DNA of 64,000 bases from an uncultured Acidobacteriota bacterium (GTDB taxonomy: Bacteria; Acidobacteriota; Thermoanaerobaculia; Multivoradales; UBA5704), in assembly GCA_963770895.1 (NCBI GenBank), contig CAVYRF010000002.1:3680001-3744000 (forward strand), written 5' to 3'. The notes beneath the pieces were generated by a model. It searched no databases and was not told the origin of the DNA. It saw nothing but the letters and a program-made list of their open reading frames with translations. Made by a program: the position numbers and the translations under genes. Positions 10,301 through 63,000 of the stretch are shown here, in pieces. Position 1 is the first letter of the stretch, and every line of letters begins with the position of its first letter.

Positions 10301-13300
10301 ACCGTCGTCTACCGGGCGATGCGGGCGGGCCAGCCCTCGCCGCTGGCCGAGCTGCCGCTGCAGTTCAGCGACTTTGCCATCTGGCAGCGCGAGCGGCTGG
10401 GCGACCCGCGGCGGATCGCCCAGCTGCTGGACTACTGGCGGGGGCAGCTTGCCGACGCCCCCGACCTGCTGCCGCTGCCGACCGACCGGCCGCGCCCGGC
10501 GGTGGCGACGCCCTGGGGGGCGCGCCGCAGCCTGGTGCTGTCGGACCGGCAGTCGGAAGGGCTGCGCGCGCTCGCCCAGGGCGAGGGGATGACGCTGTTC
10601 ATCGCCGGCGCGGCGGTGTTTAAGTTCCTGCTGATGCGCCTGTCGGGGCAGGAAAAGCTGATCCTGGGCAGCCCGATCGCCTACCGCAACGCGCCCGAGC
10701 TGCAGGACGTGCTGGGCTTCTTCATCAACCAGCTGGTGCTGTACAGCGACCTGACCGGCAATCCGCCGGCACGCCAGGCGATGCGGCGGGTGCGCGACGT
10801 GGCGCTGGCGGCCTACGCCCACCAGGAGCTGCCGTTCGCCAAGCTGATCGACACCCTGCGGCCGCATCGCGACCTGTCGCGGGTGCCGTTCACGCAGATC
10901 GTCTTCCTGCTGCTCAAGCCGACGCAGCAGGAGCATTCGGATCTGCCCGAGCTGGAGATCAGCGGCTACTGGCTGGATGCGCACCGCACCCAGTTCGACA
11001 TGACCTTTTCGCTGTGGGACGACGACGTCGGCCTGCAGGGGTGGATGGAGCACAACACCGACCTGTTCGACGGCACCACCATCGACCGCATGAAGGAGCA
11101 GTACCGCGTGCTGCTGGGCGGCCTGCTGGCCGATCCCGAGCGGCCGCTGTGGGACCTGCCGCTGCTGCCCGCCGAGCAGCGCCACCAGCTGCTGGCCGAA
11201 TGGCCGGCGCGCGACCTCGCGCCGCCGCCGGCAAGCGCCGCCGGCACGCGCATCGACCGCCAGGTGGCGGCGCGCGCGGCGCTCGCGCCCGACGCCGTGG
11301 CGGTGGTCTGCGGCGAGCGCAGCGTGACCTACGGCGAGCTGGCCGGCCGCGCCGGCCGCCTGGCCGCGCGGCTGCGCCGCCTGGGCGTCGGCCCCGAGGT
11401 GCCGGTGGGCCTGTGCTGCGGCCGCTCGGCGGACCTGGTGGCCGGCCTGCTGGCGATCCTGGGCGCCGGCGGCGCCTTCCTGCCGCTCGATCCGGTCCAT
11501 CCCGACGGGCGGCTCGCCGTCCTGATCGAAAGCGGCCTGGCGGGGCGCCTGGACGGCCCAGCTCAAGCGGCCGCCGAGCCCGGCGGTGGCCTGAGCGGGG
11601 CCGCGGTGGTGATGGCTTCCGCCGACCAGGAGGACCGTCTGCGCCGCGTCGCCGGCGCGCGGCGCCTGCACGTCGTACCGCTCGGCTCCTCGGCCGGCGA
11701 ATTGCCGGCGGTAGCCCGCGGCGAGGCCGGCGCGGCTGGCGACGAATTGCTTGCGGGAGCCGCCGCGACCGCGGCGGCGGGCGGGCAGGCCGCCTACCTG
11801 CTGTTCACCTCGGGCACGACCGGCGTGCCCAGGGGGGTGGTGGTCGAGCACGCCAGCCTGGGCAGCTTCCTGGGCGCGGCGCAGGACGTGTTCGCCTTCG
11901 CTCCCGGCGACCGGGTGGCGTGCCTGGCTCCGGTGTCGTTCGACATCGCGCTGTTCGAGCTGCTGGCGCCGCTCGCAGCCGGCGCCGCGGCGGTGCTGTT
12001 CGACCTGTCGCCGGCGCTGGACTTTGCGCGGCTGGTCGCCGAGCTGCCGGCGCTGACGGTGTTGCATGCCGTGCCCGCCCTGATGCGCGAGGTGGCGGCG
12101 ACGGCGGCGGAAGCGCCGCGGCGCAACCTGCGCCACGTCCTGTGCGGCGGCGACCGGGTGCCGGACGGCGTGATCGCCGGCATGCGCGAGGCCTTTCCCG
12201 CCGCTCGCCTGCACGTGGCCTACGGACCGACGGAAGCGACGATCTTCGCCTGTCGCGAAGAGGTGGCCACGGCGGCGGCGGCCGGCGGCGCGCTGCCTGC
12301 CTCGTTGGGCTCGCCGCTGGGGCGCCCCTTCGGCGAGGCGACGATCCTTTTGCGGCAGCAGCACGGTGCGCCGGCGGCGATCGGGGTCACCGGCGAGATC
12401 TGGATCGGCGGCCCGGTGGTGGCGCGCGGCTACCTGCGGCTACCGGAGGAGACCGCCGCGCGGTTCACGGCCGGGCCGGACGGGCGCTCTTTCCGCACCG
12501 GCGACCTGGCCCGCCGGCGGCCCGACGGCCGGCTGGAGTTTTTGGGCCGCGCCGACCAGCAGGTGAAGGTGCGCGGCGTGCGCATCGAGCTGGGTGAGGT
12601 GGAGGCGGCGATCGCCGCCCTGCCGGGGGTACAGGAGGCGGTGGTCGCGGTGCGCGACGGCGGCGACGCCCAGGGGGGCAAGCGCCTGGTCGCCTACGTG
12701 GTGCCGCACCCGGCCGCGACGTCCGAACCTGCCGGCAACGGCTCCGGCCACGCCGCGGCTGCCGATCGCGCCGCCGGCAGTGCCGCGACCGCCGGTGAGC
12801 TGCGCCGCGCGCTGGCGCAGCTGCTTCCCGAAGCGCTGGTGCCGGCCAGCTGGGTGCTGCTTGCGGAGCTGCCGCGCAACGCCAACGGCAAGGTGGATCG
12901 CGCCGCGCTGCCCGCGCCGGCGGAGACGGAAAGCGCGGGCGGCGCCGCGGGGACGCCGCCGCGGCAAGGGATCGAGCAGCAGCTGGCGGAGATCTGGGCC
13001 GAGGTGCTGGGGCGCCCCAGCGTCGGCGTCGACGAAAGCTTCTTTGCGCTGGGCGGCGACTCCATCCTGAGCATCCAGGTGGTGGTGCGCGCCCGCCGGC
13101 TGGGTATCGAGCTGACGCCGCGGCAGATCTTTCAGCATCCGACGATCGTCGAGCTGGCGGCGGTGGCGGGGTCGATGCCGCACGCCGCGGCGGAGCAGGG
13201 GCTGGTGGTCGGGCCGGTGCCGCTGACGCCGGTGCAGAGCTACTTTTGGGCCGCCGCGTCGCCCGCGCCGCAGCACGACAACCTGGCGCTGCTGCTGGAG

Positions 13301-14704: not shown

Positions 14705-33992
<19,288 letters not shown>

Positions 33993-33996
<4 letters not shown>

Positions 33997-36900
33997 GCCG
34001 GGCGGTGGAGGAGCGCCCCGCCGTGACGGCGCCCGCCGCGGCGCGGGACCTGGATCGCGCCAGCCTGCTGGCCCTGCCGCCGCCAGCCCGCCTGGCCGCG
34101 CTCACCGCCGACCTGGGCCGGCGCGCCGCCGCGGTGATCGGCACCGGCACGGCGATGCTGGCGGCCGACGAGCCATGGACCGCACGCGGCCTGGATTCGC
34201 TCGCCGCCGTGGAGCTCAGCCATACGATCGAAAGCACCTTCGGCGTCGCGCTGGCGCTCGATTCGCTGCTCGCGGGCGCCACTGCTACCGGCCTTGCCGC
34301 AGAGATCCTGGATGCGCTTGCCGGCGACGGCGCGGCACCCCAGGCCCTTGCCTCCACGGTTACGGCCCAAGCGGCACCCGGCGGTGTGGTCGGTCCGGCG
34401 GAGCGGACGGGACGGTGTGAAGTCGGAGCGATGGGCGCGCCGTCCGCGGCGGAGTTTTTGCCCTCTTCGGCGGCGGCAAGCGAGGCTGGCGGACCCGCGT
34501 CCCACGGCCAGCGGGGTCTTTGGTTCGTGGAGCGGCTGACGCCGGGCAGCACTGCGTACCACCTTGCGGCGGCGGCACGTGTGCGTCGGCGGCTGCCGAT
34601 CGGCGCGCTGCGGGCGGCATTCGACCGAGCGGTCGAGCGCCACGAGACGCTGCGCACCACCTTCCCAGCCCGCGACGGCGAGCCGTGGCGGCGCGTCGCG
34701 CCGGCCGCCGCGGCGCGCGATGCGTACGACTTTGCCGAGCATGTGCTGGACGGCGTGACGGATGCGGTGGCGCGTCGGCTCCTGGAGGAGGAGGCGTTCC
34801 GCCCGTTCGACCTGGAGCGCGGGCCGCTGCTGCGCGTGCACTGCTTCTACCGCGGCGGTGACACCTGGCTGCTGGTCGCGGCCCACCACCTGGTTGCCGA
34901 TTTCTGGTCCTTCGGCCTGCTGGCGCGCGAGCTGGCGCCGCCGCCCCAGGCACCAGCCCCGCGTCCCGGCGTCCCGCCGCGGCAAGCACCGCCGGCCGCG
35001 CGCTATGGCGATTTCGTGGAGTGGCAGCAGCGCCTGCTGGCCGGTGCTGCGGGAGAGCGGCTCGCCGCTTTCTGGCACGAGCGCCTGCATGGGCTGCCGG
35101 ACCTGGAGCTGCCCGCCGACCGGCCGCGCGGCAAGGTGCCTGCGGTAGCGCCTGTGGCAGCGGTTCCGGCGGTTGCGGTTCCGGCCGATGCGGCACCGGC
35201 GGCTGCAGCTCCGGCGGCGGCGCCCGGCGCGATGGTCGGCAGCCTGCTGCCGCCGGCGCTGCTTGACCGGCTGGAACGGCTGGCTCGCGATCACGGCACG
35301 ACCCTGTTCACCAGCCTCCTGGCGGGCTTTCAGGCGCTCCTGGCGCGTGCCACCGGCCAGACCGACTTTGCGGTCGGCGTGCCGGCGGCGGGGCGATCTG
35401 CGGCGCTGCCGGGCACCGCCGAGATCTTCGGCTACCTGGTCAATCCGCTGGTGTTGCGCGGCGACCTGCGCGGCGACCTGGGTTTTGCGGACCTGGTACG
35501 GCGCACGCGCGACGAGCTGCTGGCGGCGCTCGCCCACCAGGACTACCCGCTGCCGCTGCTGGCCCAGCGGCTGCGTCTGGAGCTTGGCGACCGGCCGTTG
35601 CTGCGGGCGCTACTGATCCTGCACCGGCCGCCGGCGGACCTGCCGGGGCTCACCGCCTTTGCGCTGGGGCAGGCGGGAGGCCGGCTGCGCCTGGCGACCG
35701 CTGGCGGCGCCGCGGTCGAGTTGGAGTCGCTGCCGCTGGCGCCGCGCGGCGCGCAATTCGAGCTGAGCCTGGCCTGCGGCCGGCGCGACGGCAGTTTGAG
35801 CGTCGCCTTGACCTATCGCTCCGACCTGTTCGACGGGGCGACCGCGAAGCGGCTGGTGGATCACCTGTGCAACCTGCTGGCCGCCGCCGTCGAGCGTCCG
35901 GCGGCACCGCTGGCGGCGCTGCTGCACCTGGGCGCCGCGGAGCGCCACCAGCTCCTGGTCGAGTGGGCCGCGGGGCTCTGCGGGCAGGCCGCGGTGTCGT
36001 GGAGCCGGGGGCTGGCGGGACAAGGCGCGGCGTCCATAAACGTGCTGCATTCCGGAAACGTGCTGCATTCCGGTCCGGTCTCTGCGCCGTGGGCCGCGGC
36101 TGGGTCCGGCGCCAAAGGCGGCGCTGACGGACCCTTCGCGACGACGCTGCACCAGGCGTGTGCGCTCCAGGCGGCGCGCACTCCGGCGGCGCCGGCGGTA
36201 ATCGCGGACGGCGCAATCCTGACCTACGCCCAACTTGACGAGCGGGCCGCCGCCCTGGCCGCCCGACTGCGCCAGCTGGGCTCCGGCCCCGAAACGGTGG
36301 TGGGGGTCTGCCTGCCGCGCAGCGCGGCGCTGGTTACGGCGCTCCTCGCCGTGCTCAAGGCCGGCGCCGCTTACCTGCCGCTCGACCCGACGTATCCAGC
36401 GCAACGTCTGCATTGGATGATCGAAGACGCGGCGGCGACGCTCCTGGTGACGCGCGCCGACGTCTGGACCGCACGTACAGCTCCCGGCGTTCGCCAGGTC
36501 GAGGTGGACGCGGACGGCTTGCCAACTTCTCCGGCTCGCGCCGGCCATGGCGTGAGCGCCGAGTCTCAGCCGGCCGGACCTGATCTCGCGCCGGCGCGGG
36601 CGGCGATGGCGGCGGGGCCGGCGAACCTGGCGTACGTGATCTACACCTCGGGATCGACGGGGCGGCCGAAGGGGGTCGGGATCACCCACGGCGGTGCGCT
36701 GCGCCTGCTGGCATGGGCGGGCGAGGCGTTTGGCGCTGCGGAGCTTGCAGGCGTGCTGGCGGCGACGTCGGTGGGGTTCGACCTGTCGGTGTTCGAGCTG
36801 TTTGCGCCTCTGGCGTCGGGCGGCGCCGTGGTGATGGCCGAAAACGCCTTGGCTCTGCACGGCCTGGCAGCGGCGCGGCAGGTGACGCTGCTCAACACGG

Positions 36901-39900
36901 TGCCTTCGGCGCTCTCCGCGCTGCTCGACCTGGGGCCGCTGCCCGCCGGGTTGCGCACAGTCTGCCTGGCCGGCGAGCCGCTGCCGCGGGCGCTGGCAGA
37001 TCGCCTGCACGCGGCGCAGCCGGGGGTGCGGCTGCTCAACCTGTACGGGCCGTCGGAGGACACCACCTATTCGACCGGTGCGACAGTCGCGGCCGGCGAT
37101 CCGCGCCCGCCGGCGATCGGCCGCGCCGTCGCCGGTTCGCTGGCCTACGTGGTGGGGCGCGGCGGCGAGCTGCTGCCGGCCGGCATCCCCGGCGAGTTGC
37201 ACCTGGGCGGCGCGGCCCTGGCGCGCGGCTATCTGCGGCGCCCCGAGCTGACCGCCGAGCGCTTCGTGCCCGATCCGTTCGGCTCGCCGGGCGGGCGCCT
37301 GTACCGCACCGGCGACCTGGTGCGGTTGCGCCAGGATGGCCAGCTCGACTTTCTTGGCCGCATCGACCGCCAGGTGAAGCTGCGCGGCTTCCGCATCGAA
37401 CCGGGCGAGATCGAAGCCGCGCTGGCAGCCCATCCGGCGGTGCGCGAAGCGGTGGTGGACCTGCGCCGCGACGACCCGTCGCCGCGCCTGGTCGCCTACC
37501 TGACGCCGGCGGCGCCTTCGGCGGCGCTAGGCGCCGTGGAGCGTCCTACGGACGAGGCGCTGAAGGCGTTTCTGGGCGCGCGCCTGCCGGCGGCGCTGGT
37601 GCCCGCGGCCTTTGTCTGGCTGCCGGCGCTGCCGCTGTCGGCCAACGGCAAGATCGATCGCGCGGCGCTGCCGACGCCGGAGCGGGCAGCTCCCGCGCCG
37701 GCGGACCAGGCGCCGCGCGGGCCGGTGGAGCAGGTCCTGGCCGCTCTGTGGTGCGAGCTGCTGGGTATTGAGCGGATCGGGCGCGACGACGACTTCTTTG
37801 CCCAGGGCGGCCATTCGCTTCTCGCCGCCCGCCTGGTGGCGCGCATGCGCCAGGCGCTCGGCGTCGAGCTGCCGCTGGCGGCACCCTTCGCCGCCCCCAC
37901 CATCGCCGCCCTTGCGCGCCGCGTCGAGGAGGCGCGAGCCGCGGCCTACGGGTCGCCGGTCGCCGTCGACGGGTCGTTGGCTGCCGCTGCCGACATTCAG
38001 CCGGCGCCGCGCGACCGCCCGGTGCCGCTGTCCGCGGCGCAGCGGCGCCTATGGCTGCTCGACCAGCTGTCGCCCGGCCAGGCGGCCTACAACATGCCGC
38101 TGGCCGTGCACCTGCGCGGCAAGCTCGATCTCCGGGCGCTGGCCGCAGCCCTGGCTGAGGTGGTGCGCCGCCACGAAGCGCTGCGCACCACGTTCGTCCA
38201 GGCCCCCGGCGGCGAGCCGCTGCAACGGATCGCTCGCGCCGGCGCGTCGCCGCGGCTGCCGGCAGGTGGCGGCAATGGAGCCGCCGGTGCGGCGCCGCGG
38301 CTGCCAGGTGGCGGCAATGGAGCCGCCGGTACGGCGCTGCGGCTGCCAGGCGGCGGCAATGGAGCCGCCGGTACGGCGCTACCTTGCATCGACCTTGCGG
38401 CACTGCCGGCGGCGCGGCGCGGCGACGTTGCCAGCCGGCTGGCGGCCGAGGCGGCGCGGCGACCGTTCGACCTGGTGCGCGGGCCGCTGCTGCGGGCCAT
38501 CCTGACGGCGGCCAGCGACGACGAGCACCTGCTGGTCATAGTGCTGCACCACGCCGTGGGCGACCTGTGGTCGCTCGGCGTGATGCTGGCCGAGCTGGCG
38601 GCGCTCTACCAGGCGTACCGTGCGGGTGCGCCGGCGGACCTGCCGCCGCCGCGCCTCCAGGCCGCGGACCACGCGGTATGGGAAGCGGCGCGGCCGGCGC
38701 CGTCCGCCGCGGACCTGGAGACCTGGCGGCGGCGCCTGGCCGGGGTGGCCGACCTGGAGCTGCCGCTGGACCGCCCGCGGCCGGCGGTGTGGGACGTGCG
38801 AGGCGGCCAGATCGCGGGCTCCCTGCCCGCCCCGCTGGTCGCGGCGCTCGCCGCCCTGGTGCGCCGCGGCGGCGCGACGCTGTTCATGGGGCTGGCCGCG
38901 GCCTGGGCGCTGCTGCTGCGCCGCCTGAGCGGCCAGCGCCAGCTGGCGTTGGGCGCCGCTTCGGGTTTGCGCGAACGTCCCGAGCTTGCCGGCGTCGTCG
39001 GTTGCTTCGTCGACACCCTGGTCCTGCCGGTGACGATCGCCGATGGCGAACCGTTCTCCCGCTTGGTCGAGTCGGTGCGCGACGCGGTGCTCGCGTCCTA
39101 CCTGCACCGCGATCTGCCCTTCGATCGCCTGGTCGAAGCCTTGCGCCCGCGGCGCGATCCCGCCCGCCCGCCGCTGGTGCAGGCCCTGATCGCCCTGCAG
39201 GAGCTCCCCCCAGGCTTCGCCGCGCCGCGCTTCGCCGGTCTGGAGGTCGAAGCCCGGCCGCTCGCCAGCGGCGCCGCCCAGCTGGAGCTGTCGCTGGCTC
39301 TGCGCTACGCGGCGCCAAGCGGCCTGGCAGGAGGGTGCGGCGCGGCTGGCGGAGCCGGTCAGGTGCCTGAACTGGTCGGCGCCAGGCCGCATCGGCCAGG
39401 TGGTGCGGCAGAACCGCTGCCCGCAAGCGGGGCTCCAGCGCAACCTGCAGGCCAGTCAGGCGATCACCGCCGCGGTGCCGGTCGAGTCGATGCGCCGCAG
39501 CTCGTCAAAGAGGCGGGCCGGTCCGAACGGTTCAGTACGGCCGGCGAGTCTGGTCTGGAGGGAGAGATCGAATACGCCGCGCGGCTCTTCGACCCGGCCA
39601 CGGTGGGCCGCCTGTGGTTGTCGCTTACGGCGCTGATCGAGGGCGCGATGCGGACGCCGCAGGCCGCCGCCGGCGAGCTGCCGCTGCTGCCGGCCGCGGC
39701 ACGCCACCAGTTGCTGGTCGAATGGAACGATGCGCCGGCCGAACGGGCGCGCGCCGCGGCCCCCGACGTCATGGCGCGCATCGCCGCGCAGGTGGCCGCG
39801 ACGCCCGACGCGGTGGCGCTGGAAGCCGGCGTTTCCGCGCTCACCTACGGCGAGCTGGGCCGGCGCGTCGCCGCCCTGGCCTCCGTCCTGGCGCGCCGCG

Positions 39901-42900
39901 GCATTGGTCCCGAGACGCGTGTGGCGCTGGAGGCGCGGCGCGCCCCCGAGATGGTCCTGGCCGTGCTGGCCGTGCTGGCGGCGGGAGGCGCCTACGTGCC
40001 GCTCGATCCCGCCGCGCCAGCCGAGCGCCGCGCCCGCATCGTCGTCGAAGCCGCGCCATACCTGGTTCTGGGCTGGGGCGGACCGCCGCTCGCCGAATAT
40101 CCTTGCCCGCTCATCGCGCTGGAGCGGCACGGCGCGCCGGTCGCTGCCGCGACGGCGCCGCCGCCGGTGACAGCCTCGCCTGCGGCTGTGCCTGAGAGCC
40201 TGCCGGCTGCCGCATCGGGCCTGCCTGCCGCTGCGACGGAGCAGGGCGGTGTGCCGCTCGCCCATTCGGTGGCGGCGCCGCCGGTGACGGCCTCGCCTGC
40301 GGCTGTGCCTGAAAGCCTGCCGGTTGGCGCGTTGGGTCTGCCGGCCGCGTCCACGAACCAGGGCGGCGCACTGATCGCCGGCGCGGCGGCGGACGGCGAT
40401 CAGCCGGCGTACGTGCTGTTCACCTCGGGCTCCACCGGTACGCCCAAGGGGGTGGTGGGCCGCCGCCGGGCGCTGTCGGGGTACCTGGCGGCCGCGGGGG
40501 AGGCATATGGGTTGGCGGCGGGCGATCGGCTGCTGCAGTTCGCGGCGCTGGGGTTCGACACCTCGGCCGAGGAGATGCTGTGCGGGCTGGCGCGCGGTGC
40601 CACGCTGGTGCTGCGCGACGATGCGATGCTGGCTTCGTGCGGCGACTTTTTGGCCGCGTGCGCGCGCTTGGGGCTCACCGTGCTGGATCTGCCGACCGCC
40701 TACTGGCACGAGCTTTCGGCACATCTGGCGGGGGCGCCGGGGTCACTGCCGCCGGCGCTGCGGCTGGTGGTGGTGGGCGGCGAGGCGATGCGGCGGCCGG
40801 CTGCCGACCCCTGGGTGCGTGCCGGCGTCCGGTTGATCAACTCCTACGGCCCCACCGAAGCCACGATCGGCGCCACCGCGGCCGCGCTTACGGTGGCCGC
40901 GCTCGACGTGCTGGGCGCGGCGCAGCGCGAAGTGTCGGCCGGCCGGCCGGTGGGCGCCGCAGTTGCGCACGTGGCCGCCGGGGATGCGGCGGTCGCGGGT
41001 GGCGCCGCGCCGGGGTGCGGCGAGCCGGCGCCGATCGGCGTTGCGGGCGAGCTGCTGCTGGGCGGCGACGGCTTGGCGCGCGGCTACCACGGCCGGCCTG
41101 ACCTGACCGCCGAGCGCTTTGTCCCCGATCCGTGGAGCGGCCGTCCCGGCGAGCGCCTGTACCGCACCGGCGACCGCGCCCGCCGCCGCGCCGACGGCGA
41201 GATCGAGATCCTGGGCCGGCTGGACGACCAGGTGAAGGTGCGCGGCTACCGCGTCGAGCTGGGCGACATCGAAGCCGCCCTGCTGCGCCATCCGCGGGTC
41301 AGCGCCGCCGCGGTGCTGCTGCGTCCCGCCGCGGAAGGGGGGTTGGTCGGCTATGTGGCGCCGGCCGCCGCTCAGGTGCCGCCGCAACAGCCGGAGGCGA
41401 TCGCCGTCGCCATCGCCGCGGCGGCCGCGGCCGCGGCGGCCGCGGCGCCGACCGAAGCGGAGCTGCGCCGCTTCGTACGTTCCCTGCTGCCTGAGTACAT
41501 GGTGCCCGCACGCTGTGTCGTGCTGGACGCGCTGCCGCGCAATCTGAACGGCAAGGTGGACCGGCGCCTGCTGCCGCCGCCCCCGTCCCCTGTCGCCGCA
41601 ACCGGCGCAAGCAGTGCAACCGGTGCAACCAGCGCGGCCGACGGAAGCAGCGCGACAGCCGCGGTCTCCGCTGCTGCCGCGGCAGCGGCGCAGGGTGCGG
41701 GGCGAGGTGCGTCGGCCGGTGTGCCGGACACAGTTCCGGCGGGTGTCTCGGCTGCGGCCGATCCGCTGTGGGACGCGATCGCCGCGGTGTGGGCCGAGGT
41801 GTTGGGGCGGCCGGTGACGGGAGCCGAAGAGGACTTTTTCGATCTTGGCGGCCATTCGCTGCTCGCGGCGCAGGTGGTCGCCCGCCTGCGCGACCGGTTC
41901 GCGATCGAGCTGCCGCTGCTCGCCATCTTCGAAGCCCCGACGGTCGCCGCGCTGGCCGAGCGGGTGGCGGCAGCGCTCGCCGTGGCCGGTCCCGCGGCGG
42001 ACCAAGATACCGCGGCCGGTCCCGTGGCGGGTCTGGATACCGCGGCCGCGCGCCAGGCCGGCGACGACGCGCCTCTGGGCAACGCCGCCGCCGTGGCGGC
42101 AAACGCAGCCGTCGCCGCTGCGGGCGTCGCGCCGCTCTCCCATTCGCAGGAACGGTTGTGGTTCCTGGACCGGCTGCAATCAGGCAGCCCCTTTTACAAC
42201 CTGACGGGCGCGGTGCACCTGGCCGGCAGACTGGCCGCCGGGGCGCTTGCTGCCAGCCTCAACGAGGTGGTGCGGCGGCACGGGGCGCTGCGCACCACCT
42301 TCGGGTCGGTGGGCGGCGAGCCGGTGCAGCAGATCGCGCCGCGGCTGCGTCTGCTGCTGCCGGAGGTCGACCTGGCGGCGTTGCCGGCGGCGCGCTGCGC
42401 GGTGGTGGCGCGGCGGCTGGCCGCGGCCTGGGGGCGGCAGAGCTTCGATCTCGAACGTGGGCCGCTGCTGGCGGTGCTGTTCCTGCGTCTGGGCGCCGAA
42501 GAAGGAATGCTGGCGCTGGCGGTGCACCACATCGTGGCCGACGGCTGGTCGCTGGCGCTGCTGACCGGCGAGCTCGCCGCGGGGTACGCCGACCTGCTGG
42601 CCGGGCGGCCGCCGGCGCTGGCGGAGCCGCCGCAGTTTGCCGACCTGGCGCGGCGCGAGCGGCGGCAGCTGGGCGGTGCGGCGTTGGCGGCGGAGCTGGC
42701 GTATTGGCGCGGGCGGCTGGCCGGCCTGGCGCCGACCGAGCTGCCGGGCGACCGGCCGCGCCCGCCGGTGCAGACGTTCCGCGGCGCGGTGCTGCCGGCG
42801 GCGCTGCCGGCGGCGGTGGTGACGGCGCTGGGCGCTGCCGGCCGGAGCCGCGGCGCGACGCTGTTCATGAGCCTGCTGGCGGCCTGGACGGCGCTGCTCT

Positions 42901-44528
42901 ATCGCTGGACCGGCAGCGCCGACGTCGCGGTCGGCACCGACGTCGCCAACCGCAACGATCGCCAGAGCGAGGCGGTGATCGGCTTCCTGGTCAACAGCGT
43001 CGTGCTGCGCGTCGACCACGCCGGCAACCCGCCGTTTGCCGAGCTGATCGACCGGGTGCGCCAGGCCGCCCTGGCGGCGTACGCGCACCAGCGGGCACCG
43101 TTCCACCGGGTGGTGGAGGCGGTGCGGCCGGTGCGCGATCCGGCGCGCAACCCGCTGTTCCAGATCATGTTCATCCTGCAGAACGCGCCGCCGCTGCGGT
43201 TGGCGCTGCCCGACCTGGTGGTGACGCCGGTCGCGCTCGACGCTCCGACCTCGGTATTCGACCTGAGCGTGTCGTGGGAGGAGGACGGCGCCGGCGGCAT
43301 GGCCGGCACCTTCCGTTACAACACCGATCTGTTTGCCGCGGCAACGGTCCGCCGGCTGGCCCAAAGCTATGGGGTGCTGGCGGCCGATGCCGCGGCGCGG
43401 CCGGCAACCCGTCTTGACGCCCTCGCGGTCGAGAGCGCCATCGAAAGAGAGCTGAAAACCATGGAATCCAAGAAACGCAAGGACCTGCGCTTCGAGAAGC
43501 TGGGCGCGGCGCGGCCGCGGGCGGTCAGCCTGTCGCAGGAGAGCCTGGTGCGCACTTCGCCGCCGCCCGACGGGGGCCACCTCCCCCTGGTGGTAGAGCC
43601 CGCCGCCCCCGCCGTGGACGTGCAGGCCTGGGCCGCCGCCCACCGCGAGCAGGTGAGCGGCTGGCTGGCCCGGCACGGCGGGGTGCTGTTTCGCGGCTTC
43701 CAGGTCCAGGACCTGGCCGAGTTCCAGGCCCTGATCGCCGCCCTGTCGCCGTCGCTCATCCAGTACGGCGAGCGGTCCTCGCCGCGGTCGCAGCTGGCGG
43801 GCAAGGTGTACACCTCGACGGATCATCCGGCCGACCAGCCGATCGTGCTGCACAACGAGCAGTCGTACACCCTCAACTGGCCGATGAAGATCGCCTTTTT
43901 CTGCGTCGAGCCGGCGGCCGGCGGCGGCGCGACGCCGATCGCCGACAGCCGCGGCATCTATCGCCGCCTGTCGCCGGTGGTGCGCGACGCGTTCGCGCAA
44001 CGCGGCGTCATGTACGTCCGCAACTTCGGCGACGGCCTGGGCCTGCCCTGGCGCGAGGTCTTTCAGACCGCCGACCGCGCCCAGGTCGAGCGCTACTGCC
44101 ACGACGCCGGCATCCAGCTGGAATGGAAAGACGGCGACCGCCTGCGCACCCGCCAGGTGCGGCCGGCCATCCGCAACCACCCGACGACCGGCGAACCGGT
44201 GTGGTTCAACCACGCGGTCTTCTTTCACGTCTCCAGCCTGGACGCGGCGACGCGCGACTCGCTGCTGTCGGGGCTGGCAGCCGACGAGCTGCCGTTCCAC
44301 AGCCTCTACGGCGACGGCGGCGAGATCGAGCCGGCGACTCTGACCGAGGTGCGGCAGGCTTTCGACGCCGAAACCACACGCTTCCCATGGCAGCGCGGCG
44401 ACGTGCTGCTGCTCGACAACATGCTGACCGCGCACGGCCGCGACCCATTCACCGGTCCGCGCAAGATCGCCGTGGCGATGGCCGAACCCTTTGCGGAAGC
44501 CGCCGTGCCGGTCGGGGAGGCGGTTTGA
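33993..44528 (+). CDS. NRPS (orf4, 3511 aa): ACP-C(starter-like)-A(Ala)-T-C-A(basic aa)-T-C-TauD-type dioxygenase
   Basis: ATGA overlap with orf3. N-terminal acyl carrier GLDSL (Ser 34197). C motifs HHLVADF, HHAVGDL, HHIVADG. A codes DLFNCALTYK and DTEDVGSIGK. C-terminal HNE...DNMLTAHGR. Confidence 0.95.
36038..36073 (+). repeat. Perfect 18-bp tandem duplication (NVLHSG x2) in a C-A linker of orf4
   Basis: aaacgtgctgcattccgg at 36038-36055 and 36056-36073. Confidence 0.95.
38252..38380 (+). repeat. Three tandem 42-45-bp units (RLP(A)GGGNGAAGxAx) inside the second C domain of orf4
   Basis: Near-identical units at 38252, 38297 and 38339 sharing ggcggcaatggagccgccggt. Confidence 0.95.
40161..40394 (+). 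repeat. 117-bp imperfect tandem duplication (PPVTASPAAVPESLP...) just before the A3 motif of the second A domain of orf4
   Basis: ccgccggtgac(a/g)gcctcgcctgcggctgtgcctga(g/a)agcctgccgg at 40161 and 40278. Confidence 0.9.
41984..42043 (+). repeat. 30-bp imperfect tandem duplication (AGPAADQDTA/AGPVAGLDTA) in a PCP-C linker of orf4
   Basis: ggccggtcccg...gataccgc at 41984 and 42014. Confidence 0.85.
43530..44490 (+). other. Fe(II)/2-oxoglutarate TauD/SyrP-like beta-hydroxylase domain fused at the C-terminus of orf4
   Basis: GGVLFRGF, VYTSTDHP, HNEQSY (His 43851, Glu 43857), GGATPIADSR, WFNH, GDVLLLDNMLTAHGR (His 44433). Confidence 0.9.
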
Positions 44529-47500
44529 GCGGCGACACCCTGACCGGCTTCCCCCTGTCGCCGCAGCAGCGCCGCCTGTGGCGCCTGGCCGAGCGCGCCG
44601 GCGCCGCACCCTTCGCCGCCGCCTGCCGCCTGCACCTGGAAGGGCCGTTGGCGCCGGAAGCCCTGCGCGCCGCCCTGGAGCAGGTGGCGGCGCGCCACGA
44701 GATCCTGCGCACCCGCTTCCAAAGCTTGCCCGGCATGGCCCTGCCGGTGCAGGTGCCGCTGGCCGCCGGCGACGCCGCGGCCGCGCCCCGGTGGCGCGCC
44801 GCGCCGGCGCCGCCACCCGCGACGCCTGTGCCGCTCATCGGTTTGTCGCCCGCCGCGCAGGCATCGCCGCTGGCCGCTACGCTGGCGTCAGACGGGGCCG
44901 ATGCAACCATCCTCGATCTGGAGCTGCCGGCGCTGTGTGCCGACGCGGGCACGCTGGAAAACCTGGTGGCCGAGCTGGCGGCGGCTTATGGGGAGGCTGT
45001 GCGGGATGCGTCCGGTGACGCAGAGACCGCGCCGGCTGCTGGTGGGGCGGGAGTCGGCGCAGCGGCTTACGGCGAGCCGGCCGACGGCGACGGTGGTGAC
45101 GGCGAGGCTGAGCCGCTCACCTATGCGCAGTTCGCCGAGTGGCAGAACGACCAGCTGGCCGGCGAGGACGCCGAAGCGGGGCGAGCGTTCTGGCGTGAGC
45201 CGCGCCTGGCGGCGGTGCCGCCGCCGCGCCTGCCGGTGACCGCGGAAGCGCCGCCCGAAGCGTTCGCGCCGGCGGCGCTCCGGGTCGATCTTGACGCCGC
45301 CGCGGCCGAGCGGGTCGCCGCCGCGGCCGCGGCGGCCGGGGTGGCAACTGAGCGCTACCTGCTGGCTGCCTGGGCGGTGCTGCTGTGGCGCTACACCGGC
45401 TGCGACGACCTGGTATTGGGACGTCTTGCCGCCGGCCGCGACCACGAGCTGCTGCGGGCCGCGTTCGGGCCGATCGCGCGCCTGCTGCCAGAGCGGGTGG
45501 GACTGGCGCCGGACCTGCCCTATGGCGAGATCCTGCGCCGCGTGACCGCGTGGCAGGAGACGACCGAAGAGTGGCAGGACAGCTTCGCCTTCACCGATGC
45601 CTGGCCGGACGAGGCGGCCGCGGTGGTCGCCGCCTACAGCTGGGAGGAGCCGGCGGCCGTGCCGCCGCCCGCGGCGGGCGTGCGCTTCACGGTCCAGCAC
45701 CTGGCCGCCCAGGTCGAACGCTGCGAGCTGCTGCTCGCCGCCCGCCACGCGGGAGGCGCCCTGACGCTCGATCTGCGCTACGACGCGGCGCGCCTGTCTG
45801 CCGCCGACGTCGCCGGGCTTGGCTGCTGCCTGACGTCGCTCCTGGCAAGCGCGGCGGCAAATCCGGATCGCCCGATCGGCGAGCTGGCGCTGCTCACCGC
45901 CGAACAGGAGCGAACCATCACCGTTTCATGGCGCGCCGATGCGTCAACCGCATCAACCAGCCGGCTTGCCGAGCTGCCGCTGCACCGCCTGCTGGAAGCG
46001 CAGGCGGCACTCACGCCGGAGCGCTTCGCGGTGGCGCCGCTGGCTGACGCGGAGAGCGCGGTGCTGTTCGGCGCCGGCGATGCGCTGGGGCTGACGTTCG
46101 GGCAGCTGAACGAGCGCGCCAACCGGCTGGCGCGCTGTCTGCGCCGGCGGGGCGTGGGTCCCGAAACCCCGGTTGGCTTGCTGTTGCCGCGGTCGGGCGA
46201 CCAGCTGGTGGCGCTGTGGGCGGTGATGAAGGCGGGCGGCGCCTGCCTGCCGCTCGATTCCGCGGCGCCGCCGGCGCGCCTTGCCGGTCTGCTTGCCGCG
46301 GCCGGCGCGCCTGTGGCGCTGGTAGCTGCCGGGCAGGGCGACCCGGCGCCGGCCGGCGCCGGCGGGGCGCGGTTGCTGGACCTGGCGTCGCTGGCGGCCG
46401 AGATGGCCGGCGAAGACGCGGCCGATCTGCCCGATGGCGCCGCCCTGGAAAACCTTGCCTATGTGATCTTCACCTCCGGCTCGACCGGCCGGCCCAAGGG
46501 CGTGCTGGTCGAGCATCGCGCCGTGCTGGATTTGGCGCGTGCGCTGGCAGGGGCGATCGGTGTGTACGGCGAGGGGCGGCCGTTGCGCGTCAGCGTGAAC
46601 GCGCCGCTCACCTTCGATGCTTCGGTCAAGCAGTGGGTGCAGCTGCTCGCCGGCCACACGCTGCAGCTGGTGCCCGAGGAGGTGCGGCTGGACGCCCCGC
46701 GGTGCGTCGAGTTTCTGCGCCGGCAGCGCGTGGACGTGCTGGACTGCACGCCGTCGCAGCTGCGCCCGCTGCTGGCGGCCGGCCTGGGGAGCGACGCGGC
46801 GGACCCGCGCGCGGTGCTGGTGGGCGGCGAGGCGATCGACGCCGCCCTGTGGAGCCGCATGGAGCAGGTGGAGAGCGCCGGGCCGACCCGCTTCTACAAC
46901 GTCTATGGGCCGACCGAGTGCACCGTGGACACCACTGCCCGGTCGCGCGCCGGCGCTGGCCCACGGCCCACCCTGGGGGGCGCCCTGGCCGGCGCCGTCA
47001 CGCTGGTGGTCGACCGCCTGCGCCTGCCCGACCCGGTGCCGGTGCCTGGCGGCTTTGCCGGCGAGCTGTGGGTGGGCGGCTCGCGGCTGGCGCGCGGCTA
47101 CCTGGGCCAGCCGGACGCCACCGCCGACCGCTTCCGCCCCGACCCCTGGGCGACCGTGCCCGGCGCGCGCGTCTATCGCACCGGCGACCTGGTGCGCCGT
47201 CTAGCTCCTGAGGCGCCGCCGGAGCCGGGCGCCGGCGACCAGCTGGAGTTTCTGGGCAGGGCCGACCGCCAGATCAAGGTGCGCGGCTTTCGCATCGAGC
47301 TCGAAGAGATCGAAGCCGCCCTGGCCTCCCACCCGGCGGTGCGCCAGGCGGTGGTGGTGGTCGTGCCCCCGGCGGGTGCCGATGGTGGCGGCGCGCAGCT
47401 GGCCGCCTACGTCGCGCTGCGCACCGCCGAGCAAGGAAGCGCGGCCGATGGTCGCGGCGGCGCCAGCGGTGGCGTCGGCGGAATCACAGCGCCCGGCGCA

Positions 47501-48049
47501 GGCGACCTGCGGGGGTGGCTGCGCGAGCGGCTGCCCGAGCCGATGGTGCCGGCGTTCGTGGTGACGCTGCCCGAGCTGCCGATGACGGCGCGCGGCAAGG
47601 TGGATCATCGCGCCCTTCCCGACGCACGGCAGGCGGCCGCGGCGCGCGCGGCGGTCGCGTACACGGCGCCGCGCAACCAGGCCGAGCGCACCGTCGCCGC
47701 GGTCTGGCAGGAAGTGTTGGGGGTGCCGGTGGTGGGAGTGGATGACAACTTCTTCGACCTGGGCGGCCACTCGCTGCTGATGGTGCGCGCCCACGGGCGC
47801 TTGCAGGAGGAGCTGGGGCGGCCGCTGTCGATGGTTGAAATGTTCCGCTTCACCACCGTCGGCGGGCTCGCCGAGTACCTGGTGGGTGGCCAGGGCGACG
47901 AGCTGTCGCTGGCCGCGGTGCGCGCTCGCGCCGGCAACCAGCGACAGGGCGAACAGCGCCAGCGCCGCGCGGCGCGGCGGCCTTTTGCGGCGCCGGAGCC
48001 GGCGCCGCCCGCGGCGCAGGGCGACGACGGCGACGAGGTGACGCGGTGA
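44525..48049 (+). CDS. NRPS (orf5, ~1174 aa): interface (non-catalytic C-like) domain - A(Glu) - PCP
   Basis: TTG 44525 overlaps the orf4 TGA, with GGAGG at 44516-44520. Starts GFPLSPQQRRLW. HHxxxDG is replaced by LPALCADA. A code DAKDLGVVDK. PCP LGGHSLL. The ORF-track start at 44123 is spurious. Confidence 0.92.
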   Translation: MSGDTLTGFPLSPQQRRLWRLAERAGAAPFAAACRLHLEGPLAPEALRAALEQVAARHEILRTRFQSLPGMALPVQVPLAAGDAAAAPRWRAAPAPPPATPVPLIGLSPAAQASPLAATLASDGADATILDLELPALCADAGTLENLVAELAAAYGEAVRDASGDAETAPAAGGAGVGAAAYGEPADGDGGDGEAEPLTYAQFAEWQNDQLAGEDAEAGRAFWREPRLAAVPPPRLPVTAEAPPEAFAPAALRVDLDAAAAERVAAAAAAAGVATERYLLAAWAVLLWRYTGCDDLVLGRLAAGRDHELLRAAFGPIARLLPERVGLAPDLPYGEILRRVTAWQETTEEWQDSFAFTDAWPDEAAAVVAAYSWEEPAAVPPPAAGVRFTVQHLAAQVERCELLLAARHAGGALTLDLRYDAARLSAADVAGLGCCLTSLLASAAANPDRPIGELALLTAEQERTITVSWRADASTASTSRLAELPLHRLLEAQAALTPERFAVAPLADAESAVLFGAGDALGLTFGQLNERANRLARCLRRRGVGPETPVGLLLPRSGDQLVALWAVMKAGGACLPLDSAAPPARLAGLLAAAGAPVALVAAGQGDPAPAGAGGARLLDLASLAAEMAGEDAADLPDGAALENLAYVIFTSGSTGRPKGVLVEHRAVLDLARALAGAIGVYGEGRPLRVSVNAPLTFDASVKQWVQLLAGHTLQLVPEEVRLDAPRCVEFLRRQRVDVLDCTPSQLRPLLAAGLGSDAADPRAVLVGGEAIDAALWSRMEQVESAGPTRFYNVYGPTECTVDTTARSRAGAGPRPTLGGALAGAVTLVVDRLRLPDPVPVPGGFAGELWVGGSRLARGYLGQPDATADRFRPDPWATVPGARVYRTGDLVRRLAPEAPPEPGAGDQLEFLGRADRQIKVRGFRIELEEIEAALASHPAVRQAVVVVVPPAGADGGGAQLAAYVALRTAEQGSAADGRGGASGGVGGITAPGAGDLRGWLRERLPEPMVPAFVVTLPELPMTARGKVDHRALPDARQAAAARAAVAYTAPRNQAERTVAAVWQEVLGVPVVGVDDNFFDLGGHSLLMVRAHGRLQEELGRPLSMVEMFRFTTVGGLAEYLVGGQGDELSLAAVRARAGNQRQGEQRQRRAARRPFAAPEPAPPAAQGDDGDEVTR

Positions 48050-60000: not shown

Positions 60001-63000
60001 GGCCGCCCCAAGGGTGCCGCGGTGCCGCACCGGGCGGTGGCGCGCCTGCTGCTGGGCAGCAACCTGGTGCGCTTGGCGCCCGGCGACAGGGTGGGCAACC
60101 TGTGCAATCCGGCGTTCGACGTCACCGTGTTCGAGATCTGGGGAGCGCTGCTCAACGGCGCCACGGTGGTGGTGATCGAGCCGGGCGAGACGCTGGCGCT
60201 CGGCGACCTGGCGGCGACGGTCGCGCGTCGCCGGATCGACGTGCTGTTCGTGCCGACCGCGCTGTTCAACCAGCTGGTCGAGCAGGAGCCGGAGGCCCTG
60301 GCGGCGTTGGGCGGCCTGCGCCAGCTGCTCATCGGCGGCGAAGCCGCCGACGCGGTGCGGGTGCGGCAGGCCCTGCCGGCGATGACGGGGCGGCTGGTCA
60401 ACGCCTACGGGCCGACCGAGGCGACGGTCTTCGCCTCCGCCTGGCGGCTGCTGGACGTCGCCGGCGACGCGGTGCCGATCGGACGGCCGCTGACCAACAC
60501 CCGGCTGCACGTGCTGGACGCGGCGGGAGAGGCGGTGCCGCTCGGCAGCGCCGGCGAGCTGTGCGTCGCGGGCGACGCCCTGGCCGCCGGCTACGTTGGG
60601 CGGCCCGACCTGACGGCGGAGCGGTTCGTGCCCGATCCCTTTGCCGGCCGCGCGGCGGGGGCGCGCGACGGTTGGAACGAGCCGGGCGGGCGCTTGTACC
60701 GCACCGGCGACCGGGCGCGCCTGCTGGCCGACGGCACCCTGCAGTACCTGGGGCGCCTGGACGCCCAGGTCAAGATCCGCGGCTTCCGCATCGAGCCGGG
60801 CGAAGTGGAGGCGGCGCTGATGCGGCATCCCTTGGTCGGCGCCGCGGCGGTGGGGGTGCGCGACGACCTGCCGGGTGGGCGCCAGCTGATCGCCTACGTC
60901 ACCGGCGAGGCGGTGAGCGCCGCCGAGCTGCGCTCCTTCCTCAAGGACAGCCTGCCCTCCTACATGGTCCCGGCTCATTTCGTGACGGTGCCGGCCCTGC
61001 CGCTGACCGCCAACGGCAAGCTGGACCGGGCGGTGCTGGCGCGCATCGCCGCGGTGCTGTCGCCCGCGGCCAGTGCCGCGGCGGCGGCGGGCAGCGGGCC
61101 GCCGCCGCGCGGCGTCCTCGAAGAGGAGATCGCCGCGGTGTGGCGCGAGGTGCTGGGCGTTGCGGCGGTCGGCCGCGACGACAACTTCTTCGACCTGGGC
61201 GGCCACTCGCTGCTGCTCGCCAAGGTGCACGCGCGGCTGCGCCACCGCCTGGCCGGCCTGGAAGCGCTGGACCTGTTCCGCTACCCGACGATCGCCGCGC
61301 TGGCCGCGCACCTGCTGCCGCCGCCGGCGGTCGGCACGGACGTCGGGGCGTCGGCGACGACGGGCTTGCCCTCCCTGCCCCCCCTGGCCGACTACCTGCG
61401 GGGAGCGCCGGTGCTGCCTGTCGCGGTGGGCGACGTCGCGGTCGTCGGCATGGCCGGCCGCTTTCCCGGCGCGGCATCGGTCGACGAGCTGTGGCGCAAC
61501 CTGATGGCCGGCGCACGGTCGATGCGGCAGCTGTCGGCGGCCGACCTGGACCGCGCCGGGGTACCGGCGGCGGAGCGCGGCGCCCCCGGCTACGTGCCGG
61601 TGGCGGCGACGCTCGACGCCATCGACCAGTTCGACGCCGCGTATTTCGGCCTGACGCCGCGCGAGGCGGCGGTGATGGACCCGCAGCAGCGGCTGCTGCT
61701 CGAGTGCGCGGTCGAAACGTTGCAGGACGCCGGCTACGAGCCGGCGAGCTGGCGCGGCCGCATCGGCATCTTCGCCGGCTCGGCGATGAACAGCTATTCC
61801 CTGCACGTGCTGGCGGCCGACCACGGCGCCAACGACCTGCAGGCGCGATTGGGGATCGAAAAGGACTTCCTCGCCTCGCGCGTCTCCTACCGGCTGGGGC
61901 TGGAGGGGCCGAGCATCGCGGTGCAGACGGCGTGCTCCACGTCGCTCGTGGCGGTCCACCTGGCCTGCCGGTCGCTGCTCGCCGGCGAGTGCGACCTGGC
62001 GCTGGCCGGCGGCATCGCGCTGCGCAATCTGTACGGCGAGGGCTACCTGCACGAGCCGGGCGGCGTGCTGTCGCCGGATGGCCACTGCCGGTCCTTCGAC
62101 GCCGCCGCCGCCGGCACCGTGGCCGGCGACGGCGTCGGACTGGTGGCGCTCAAGCGCCTGGCCGACGCGCTGGCCGACGGCGATACCATTTCCGCCGTGA
62201 TCAAGGGTTCGGCGGTCAACAACGACGGCGGCGGCAAGATCGGCTACACCGCCCCCGGCCATCGCGGCCAGGCGCGGGTGGTGCGGGACGCGCTGGCCGC
62301 CGCCGGCGTCGATCCGCGCACCGTGTCCTACGTCGAAGCGCACGGCACCGCCACGTCGCTCGGCGACCCTCTGGAGGTGGCCGCGCTCGCCGAGGCGTTC
62401 GCCGCCGGCGGCGCGGCCGGCGACGGCGCCGCCTGCGCGCTGGGGTCGCTGAAGAGCAACATCGGCCACTTGGACAGCGCGGCGGGCATCGCCGGCCTGA
62501 TCAAGACGGTGCTCGCGCTGCGCCACGGCGCCATCCCGCCGAGCCTGGATTTCACCCAGCCCAATCAGCGCATCCGCTTCGCCGGCACGCCGTTCCATGT
62601 CGCCACCGCGGCGATCGATCCCTGGGTCGGGCACGGCGGCGTGCGGCGCGCCGGCGTCAGCGCCTTCGGCATCGGCGGCACCAACGCGCACGTGATCCTG
62701 GAGCAGGCGCCGCCGGCGGCGGCGGCGGCCCCCGACGGCGGCAGCCAGCTGCTGCAGCTGGCGGCGCCGAGCGAAGCGGCGCTGGCGCGCACCGCGGCGG
62801 CCCTGGCCGACCACCTGGCGCGGAACCCCGGTCTGGAGCTGGCCGACGTCGCCTTCACCTTGCGCGTCGGCCGGCGCGCCGCCGCGCATCGCCTGGCCGT
62901 GGTGAGCGGCGACCGCGCCGCGGCGATCGCCGCCCTGCGCGGCCAGGACCCGGCCAGGCTGCTGCGCGGCACGACGCGACGCGAGCCGCCGGTCGCCCTG

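Follow-up and report, generated by a model that had tools for sequence, protein, structure and literature searches.

A candidate glutamate-hydroxylating module split over two nonribosomal peptide synthetase proteins in an uncultured Acidobacteriota bacterium

Here we describe two adjoining genes, orf4 and orf5, of a nonribosomal peptide synthetase (NRPS) locus in an uncultured Acidobacteriota bacterium. They lie in a stretch of 64,000 nucleotides (GenBank assembly GCA_963770895.1, contig CAVYRF010000002.1, positions 3,680,001 to 3,744,000 of the forward strand), the whole of which is called the window below and to which all coordinates refer unless otherwise said. The product of orf4 ends in a condensation (C) domain fused to a dioxygenase domain of the TauD family. 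That of orf5 starts with a condensation-like domain of the type known as an interface domain, followed by an adenylation (A) domain with a glutamate (Glu) type specificity code and a thiolation (T) domain. This layout is that of the known integrated hydroxylase/interface-domain cassette, and its new part would be the glutamate substrate.

The junction of orf4 and orf5

The features of the two genes are as follows.

33993..44528, + strand: orf4, an NRPS of 3511 amino acids (aa) with the order carrier-C-A-T-C-A-T-C-TauD (from the list of open reading frames, translation and Pfam)
42123..43436, + strand: last C domain of orf4 (Pfam Condensation, aa 2711-3148), with an intact HHIVADG
43611..44477, + strand: TauD/TfdA-type Fe(II)/2-oxoglutarate dioxygenase domain fused to that C domain (Pfam PF02668, aa 3207-3495, E 2.8e-47)
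44514..44528, + strand: orf4/orf5 junction, with GGGGAGG at 44514-44520, a TTG start at 44525-44527 and the TGA stop of orf4 at 44526-44528
44525..48049, + strand: orf5, with the order C-like-A-T (Pfam)
44525..45904, + strand: interface-type domain of orf5 with a condensation fold (Pfam Condensation, matching in its C-terminal part, Pfam positions 168-455)
45998..47599, + strand: A domain of orf5 (Pfam AMP-binding and AMP-binding_C), with all core motifs present
47690..47881, + strand: T domain of orf5 (Pfam PP-binding), with LGGHSL at 47759-47776

Domain orders, here and below, come from Pfam applied to whole proteins and to chunks of 380 residues. In orf4 Pfam finds PP-binding, Condensation (four stretches, the best being aa 2711-3148), AMP-binding (two) and TauD; its two A domains have the codes DLFNCALTYK and DTEDVGSIGK. 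The HHIVADG motif occupies aa 2845-2851 (bases 42525-42545). Behind this C domain the TauD domain is fused in frame, with no intervening stop. Its residues are numbered here within the 342-aa piece encoded by 43500-44525. Two of the iron ligands, H118 (43851) and E120 (43857), lie in the sequence LHNEQS and the third is H312 (44433). H118 and E120 are present in all 73 aligned TauD rows and H312 in 72 of them, the remaining row being incomplete at its end. The iron site therefore reads HxE...H, the pattern of hydroxylases, as opposed to the HxA/G of halogenases. A search of PDB sequences with the TauD domain returned only At3g21360 (1y0z) and the TauD-like protein 9yut. The NCBIfam search gave no specific family match for either the TauD or the interface domain, and the search for homologous proteins returned no named homologue. 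Chance resemblance is not a concern, because the domains are long and intact.

The TTG start of orf5 overlaps the stop codon of orf4 (TTGA) and lies 4 bases past GGGGAGG. We accept this start because the partner proteins of 53 other loci (see below) align from residues 1-9 of orf5, and because the N-terminus of CcsI, a protein of cyanochelin B synthesis, matches as well. A listed ATG at 44123 was rejected as an alternative start; with it, orf5 and the TauD domain would share 400 bases. Within the interface domain LPALCADA occupies aa 134-141 of orf5 (bases 44924-44947). When seven canonical C domains of the cluster are aligned with 12 partner domains, PALCADA of orf5 falls under HHxxxDG, which means that it has lost the catalytic His and retained the Asp.

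The code of the orf5 A domain reads DAKDLGVVDK (D698, A699, K702, D740, L765, G767, V793, V801, D802 and K1025 in orf5 numbering). We take this full ten-letter string to be the Stachelhaus code for Glu. Its first eight letters, DAKDLGVV, are identical to those of a proven Glu module, surfactin A1, and it is in this form that the surfactin module-1 code is given in the relevant passage of PMC10548584. A preliminary description of this DNA, made from its letters, had named the C-TauD fusion, the altered motif of orf5 and the ten-letter code. Pfam and the coordinates bear out the fusion with its HHIVADG and HxE...H motifs, LPALCADA lies exactly where it had been placed, and the code came out the same when re-read from alignments. 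The surfactin likeness that it drew agrees with the printed code.

The TauD lineage and the code of its partner

A scan with the TauD domain, limited to one genome per species, gave 80 loci. An orf5-like gene begins no more than 400 bases past the TauD domain in 53 of these loci, and all 53 carry a motif like (L/I)(P/S)A(L/I)CAD; the remaining 27 are mostly stand-alone TauDs of Actinomycetota. The partner code is readable in 45 of the 53. Codes were taken from multiple alignments, as pairwise BLAST readings are spoiled by gaps for the domains of aspartate (Asp) type (giving, for instance, AAGKIGHVGK). Six partners, all from Pyrinomonadaceae/Blastocatellia (L003-L006, L009, L080), have exactly DAKDLGVVDK, one from a cyanobacterium (L071) has DAKDVGVVNK, and in L001 a partial code ends after DAK. 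Asp-type codes of the form DLTKLGH[VI]G number 22 (20 DLTKLGHVGK and 2 DLTKLGHIG-), SSRDLSMGIK-like codes 11 and asparagine (Asn) type codes four. The code shared by Asp and Asn partners, DLTK.G[HE]VGK, is very different from that of orf5. The whole A domain of orf5 behaves in the same way, sharing 46-47% identity with the remaining Glu-coded partners and 32-39% with partners of the Asp, Asn and SSRD types.

A maximum-likelihood tree was made from 75 TauD rows (73 in an earlier version) with a quick IQ-TREE search. The eight rows with a Glu-coded partner need a single label change on this tree, a value as low being reached in none of 500 shuffles. All eight fall within a clade of 12 rows (SH-aLRT 85; 92 in the 73-row tree), the partners of the other four being unreadable. 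This clade is nested in one of 25 rows (SH-aLRT 96), from which rows with Asp, Asn or SSRD partners are absent. CcsH and CcsK, the hydroxylases of cyanochelin, belong to a sister clade of 22 rows (SH-aLRT 96), and the window's TauD lies outside it.

The SSRDLSMGIK code deserves a remark of its own. It, or a near variant, is found on the interface-A-T partner of a fused TauD in 11 cyanobacterial loci (L008, L012, L018, L023, L025, L026, L029, L035, L038, L039, L072) and in the metagenome locus L123. We could match it to no amino acid, and it was found printed in no paper of our literature search. TauDs with partners of this type are interleaved on the tree among the Asp-partnered ones.

Six columns of a 22-row alignment set the Glu-partnered TauDs apart from the rest. 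Three of them are Q121, which directly follows the iron ligand E120, T124 and R225 (44172), and these three residues are present in all 12 rows of the Glu clade. At the same positions the Asp-partnered TauDs of the tree (CcsH is not in this table) have M or N, then S, A or T, then mostly A. The resulting signature, H-E-Q-T-R-H, was used as a prediction of the partner code in a separate scan of metagenome contigs, which gave 47 loci. Wherever a TauD with this signature had a readable partner, the code was of Glu type (8/8, seven being DAKDLGVVDK and one DSKDLGLVDK), while TauDs with other signatures had such a partner in none of 12 cases. Single-linkage clustering at 85% identity puts four of the eight (L108, L112, L114, L127) into one cluster with rows of the first set; L109 and L110 cluster only with each other, and L113 and L107 remain singletons. 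L107, the locus with DSKDLGLVDK, is a separate lineage, a distant Glu-type member 59% identical to the nearest row of the first set. L131 has a fused TauD with another signature, H-E-L-N-A-H, and an interface partner coded DAKNFGLANK. As L131 and L107 illustrate, the cassette seems to have still other substrate variants.

The reading that we favour, and that we hold to be reasonably likely though well short of certain, is that orf4 and orf5 make up one NRPS module split over two proteins, in which the TauD domain hydroxylates carrier-bound Glu. Action on carrier-bound Glu is suggested because the TauDs with Glu-coded partners form one clade, because the signature of that clade predicts the partner code, and because the code downstream of these TauDs is constant. 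The same action had been proposed in the preliminary description, and these three observations support it.

An alternative has to be weighed at this point. The TauD domain is covalently part of orf4 and not of orf5, and it might act on the upstream residue of orf4 (code DTEDVGSIGK), on some other carrier or on a free amino acid, with the Glu module a mere neighbour. The upstream codes can be compared: they read DTEDVGSIGK in orf4, DAWFLGNVVK or DAWSLGNVVK in L003-L006 and L009, and DAWFLGVIVK in L001. They thus vary within the Glu clade (being Leu-like in the Acidobacteria), whereas the downstream code is constantly that of Glu and was predicted by the signature in 8/8 metagenome loci. Moreover, in cyanochelin B the hydroxylated residue is, according to PMC12628792, that of the module following the fused hydroxylase. 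A predicted complex of the TauD and interface domains scored 0.37, the best of three controls scoring 0.00. The runs agreed in at least 93% of contacts, with partner pLDDT of at least 82, and used alignments that we made ourselves. This counts as weak support for docking, a point that leaves the neighbour explanation some room: of 80 solved complexes 58 come up to the mark, as do 2 of 110 mismatched pairs, and passing scores of 0.60 or less came from only 7 of the 80 solved complexes and from both passing mismatches. On this evidence we regard action elsewhere than on the orf5 residue as very unlikely.

Several further considerations weigh against a Glu hydroxylase. A ten-residue code is only a prediction of the substrate, and its positions were set by a GrsA register that was not derived with a tool. 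A code one letter off that of orf5, DAQDLGVVDK, is reported in PMC12283262 for both Glu and glutamine (Gln). The support values of the tree are SH-aLRT values of quick searches, and its rows include no KtzO/KtzP, SyrP or proteobacterial IβH_Asp/IβH_His sequences. The Glu-labelled rows represent few independent lineages (the window with its relative G005, one cyanobacterium and the Pyrinomonadaceae/Blastocatellia), and kin share labels. Finally, on our tree the window's TauD stands apart from the Asp clade of CcsH and CcsK, but the approximately unbiased (AU) test is not decisive, as the best tree that holds the TauDs of the window and G005 with the Asp clade is 20.3 log-likelihood units worse and is not rejected (p-AU 0.117).

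Some of these points would suit a situation in which the code misleads, and Asp, Asn, Gln or 2-aminoadipate is loaded. The hydroxylase would then belong to an ordinary known class or to a different new one. Predictions from codes do sometimes fail, DAQDLGVVDK serves two amino acids, and the AU test allows a place with the Asp clade. On the other side, the ten letters fit a pattern whose first eight are those of surfactin A1 (PMC10548584), the Lys at position 239 would suit an acidic side chain, the Asp and Asn partners of our data set are coded quite differently, and the A domain is closest to Glu-coded ones. We consider a misleading code, if anything, a shade less probable still than action at another site.

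The proposed reaction and its genomic setting

If Glu is the substrate, the order of events might be the following. The A domain of orf5 would activate L-glutamate and load it onto the T domain of orf5, the presumed site of hydroxylation. The interface domain would hold the TauD domain of orf4 against the loaded Glu, and this dioxygenase would hydroxylate it, using Fe(II), 2-oxoglutarate and O2. The position would most likely be C-3, because all characterised relatives hydroxylate there, which is an argument by analogy. The intact last C domain of orf4, in front of the TauD, would join the upstream peptide onto the (hydroxy-)Glu carried by orf5. The ketosynthase (KS) of orf6 would take over the chain and extend it by one ketide, which would be reduced and dehydrated. 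In this scheme the domains with their order and intact catalytic motifs, the Glu-type code and the association of this TauD lineage with Glu-coded partners are observed. Which amino acid is loaded, how the proteins dock, and the nature, position and stereochemistry of the reaction are predictions. Hydroxy-Glu is probably made on the assembly line, since a cassette known for Asp and histidine (His) precedes a Glu-loading unit.

Another possibility is that Glu is indeed the substrate and the chemistry of the TauD domain is different: 4-hydroxylation, desaturation, or a hydroxylation preparing ring closure or elimination together with the ketoreductase (KR) and dehydratase (DH) of orf6. Enzymes of the TauD fold that use Fe(II) and 2-oxoglutarate catalyse several types of reaction, the clade has residues of its own beside the iron ligands (Q121, T124, R225), and where the flank suffices a KS always follows the cassette (8/8 metagenome loci, L003-L006 and L080). 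It counts against our reading that sequence cannot separate hydroxylation at C-3 from that at C-4, or hydroxylation from other 2-oxoglutarate chemistry. Yet the ligand pattern HxE...H is that of hydroxylases and not the HxA/G of halogenases, the characterised relatives named in the papers cited here are all beta-hydroxylases, and a KS also follows an Asp-type partner. Other chemistry on Glu appears unlikely to us, if less so than the two alternatives above.

The KS calls for closer description. In L003-L006 and L080 the Glu module is followed by a KS-acyltransferase (AT) pair 51-56% identical to the start of orf6. All eight Glu-type metagenome loci have a KS 58-62% identical in that place, and G005 has one 55% identical. 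A KS-AT gene after the Glu module is found in the window, in its same-genus relative and in 13 loci of Acidobacteria type. One Asp-type locus, L130, is likewise followed by a KS, so the KS is not specific to the Glu clade. G005 is the only one of nine same-genus genomes searched with a close copy of the TauD (72% identical). In G005 the C-TauD gene is separated by two oppositely oriented genes of glycosyltransferase type from a C-like-A-T gene whose code residues are unchanged, and the KS comes after that. The two halves of the module can therefore be separate transcription units. The intervening genes (10210-12827 on the G005 contig, L099) encode a fusion of a sulfotransferase with a GT2 glycosyltransferase, and a GT2 protein.

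The cassette occurs in the 71%-GC source genome, in the same-genus relative, in many Pyrinomonadaceae/Blastocatellia (Acidobacteria) and in at least one cyanobacterium, and it is probable that the Glu-specific variant is common in uncultured soil bacteria. One could go further and propose that the three genes C-TauD // interface-A(Glu)-T // KS-AT form a conserved cassette, with a fourth substrate class of integrated hydroxylase, for Glu and outside siderophores. It would join 3-hydroxy-Glu to a reduced, dehydrated ketide, giving a so far undescribed unit, a vinylogous hydroxy-glutamate whose hydroxyl might serve ring closure. The pocket would be retuned from Asp to Glu by R225 and Q121, which mark the Glu clade beside the iron site. 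This extended proposal we put forward tentatively and think doubtful in its entirety.

The window as a whole consists of polyketide synthase (PKS)-NRPS genes, all on one strand. The neighbours of orf4 and orf5, as seen with Pfam, are listed below, where ACP stands for acyl carrier protein, E for epimerization, MT for methyltransferase and TE for thioesterase.

beginning 2.6 kb upstream of the window: orf1, C-A-T-C-A-T
between orf1 and orf3: orf2, KS-AT-KR-ACP-C-A-T-E
5' of orf4: orf3, C-A-T-C-A-T-C-A-T-C-A(MT)-T-C-A-T-TE
48046..64440 (past the window end at 64000), + strand: orf6, KS-AT-KR-DH-ACP-C-A-T-C-A-T-KS-AT (Pfam on chunks)

Downstream of orf6 there is a gene for a MacB/FtsX-type permease. 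The terminal thioesterase of orf3 sits immediately 5' of orf4 (32170-34200), and the first domain of orf4 is a carrier. At the other end, the C-terminal KS-AT of orf6 (61156-64000, in a frame running to 64440) comes without a carrier or a release domain. A simple fit of gene order to assembly order fails. There may be two adjacent lines or one non-colinear line, and in the latter case the last KS-AT of orf6 may serve the first carrier of orf4.

Such an apparently unfinished line, in which orf6 ends in KS-AT with neither carrier nor thioesterase, could be taken to mean that the hydroxylase or the module is an inactive relic, which would yield an unmodified Glu peptide or no product; a close copy in just one of the nine same-genus genomes would agree with this. 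However, 14 kb are free of any stop or frameshift, the catalytic motifs of the C, TauD, A and T domains are all intact, the genes are tightly coupled and the cassette is conserved across phyla. Among the explanations discussed, decay seems to us the least probable.

Some features of the genome may be added. The window has about 76% G+C compared with 70.8% for the whole genome; every 2-kb step of it lies at 74-78%, and the three contigs of the genome lie at 70.7-70.9%. The NRPS genes of the cluster contain many inserts rich in Ala, Gly and Pro. In-frame tandem duplications in orf4 (36038-36073, 18 bases x 2; 38237-38379, 42 bases x 3.3; 40130-40392, 117 bases x 2.2) are located in the first C-A region and in the second C and second A domains, where they occupy loops or linkers. 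The genome, which consists of these three contigs and is nearly complete (~95% by marker genes), gives seven TauD-like matches in total. One is a second fused TauD, 45% identical, at 1607408-1608379 of contig C1 of the source genome (G000; L085, L102), in a frame of 2615 residues that is followed by more A-T modules.

If our reading is correct, it has some practical consequences. Siderophore genome mining, for instance by antiSMASH 8 with its NRP-metallophore rule, takes integrated hydroxylases and their interface domains as markers. A Glu-directed lineage within PKS-NRPS lines would then be a source of false siderophore calls, and also a ready marker for hydroxy-glutamate peptides. Iron binding like that of beta-OH-Asp would not be expected of 3-hydroxy-Glu, because it is not an alpha-hydroxy-carboxylate. 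The Asp-type and Glu-type enzymes would make a natural pair, with few differing active-site residues, for studying, and later retuning, how on-line hydroxylases choose their substrate. Uncultured soil Acidobacteria, a group with hardly any known natural products, often carry the cassette, and the nearly complete genome suits such study.

Comparison with known systems

Our literature search, judged from titles, abstracts and some main-text passages, found no interface-type or fused Glu hydroxylase. A metallophore paper of 2026 (PMC12971057) lists in its main text the classes TBH_Asp, IBH_Asp, IBH_His, CyanoBH_Asp1/2 and SBH_Asp together with 'several unreported clades'. The main text names no Glu class ('hydroxyglut' is absent from it), and the tree in its Figure 1-figure supplement 2 may already show the clade.

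We know another route to hydroxylated Glu on a carrier. KtzO and KtzP of the kutzneride system, for which Strieker et al. (2009) is the cited source, are, like the enzyme proposed here, non-haem iron oxygenases that make 3-hydroxy-Glu from carrier-bound Glu. They differ in being stand-alone and acting in trans, whereas the window's TauD is fused. Neither fusion to a C domain nor an interface domain is known for them. The origin of kutzneride 3-OH-Glu from stand-alone oxygenases, which the preliminary description had named, is also stated in a review (PMC7459860).

A third arrangement exists in Streptomyces. In L050 (5860-11875), L056, L061, L063 and L077 two tandem stand-alone TauDs precede a protein of the order C-like-A(DAKDLGVVD)-FkbM methyltransferase-T. 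The first TauD of each pair belongs to the same 25-row clade and shares Q121/T124. Hydroxy- or methoxy-glutamate may be the unit built at these loci, possibly by kin of the KtzO/KtzP pair.

SyrP of syringomycin and CcsK resemble the window's TauD in belonging to the same family and in acting on a carrier-bound acidic amino acid, and CcsK is 50% identical to it. They are, however, stand-alone and Asp-specific, and CcsK falls in the Asp clade of the tree.

The closest parallel in layout is cyanochelin B of Leptolyngbya sp. NIES-3755 (plasmid AP017310.1). There the NRPS BAU16013 (CcsFGH) ends in C(HHIVSDG)-TauD, and 18 bases later BAU16012 (CcsI) starts with an LPALCAD C-like domain followed by A(Asp)-T. 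CcsI and CcsL have LPALCAD and LPSLCAD in place of HHxxxDG, just as orf5 does. Identities are 48% for the TauD domain (CcsH), ~29% for the interface domain and ~36% for the A domain. The code of CcsI is of Asp type (..KIGHVGK) and the product contains beta-OH-Asp, whereas the code of orf5 is of Glu type; the window's TauD also sits in the sister clade to CcsH/CcsK. The beta-OH-Asp at position 4 of cyanochelin B is assigned to the CcsH/CcsI pair in PMC12628792, in agreement with the claim of the preliminary description that a C-hydroxylase // interface-A-T layout is known for beta-OH-Asp. PtcB of potashchelin is described with the same build in PMC7100376.

The wider family is that of the IβH_Asp and IβH_His hydroxylases. 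What they have in common with the window is the hydroxylase at the C-terminal end of an NRPS protein and the non-catalytic interface domain in front of A-T; hydroxylation on the carrier, which is described for them, would be shared as well. Their founding description, with interface domains in siderophore NRPSs, is said to be that of Reitz et al. (PNAS, 2019). The window shows the corresponding elements, that is, the HxE...H triad, the hydroxylase behind an HHxxxDG C domain and a following protein of the order interface-A-T. The partner codes that go with the IβH_Asp, IβH_His and CyanoBH_Asp classes are those for Asp or His, and orf5 carries DAKDLGVVDK. The classes described so far serve Asp and His in metal-binding peptides, while the module in the window has a Glu-type code.

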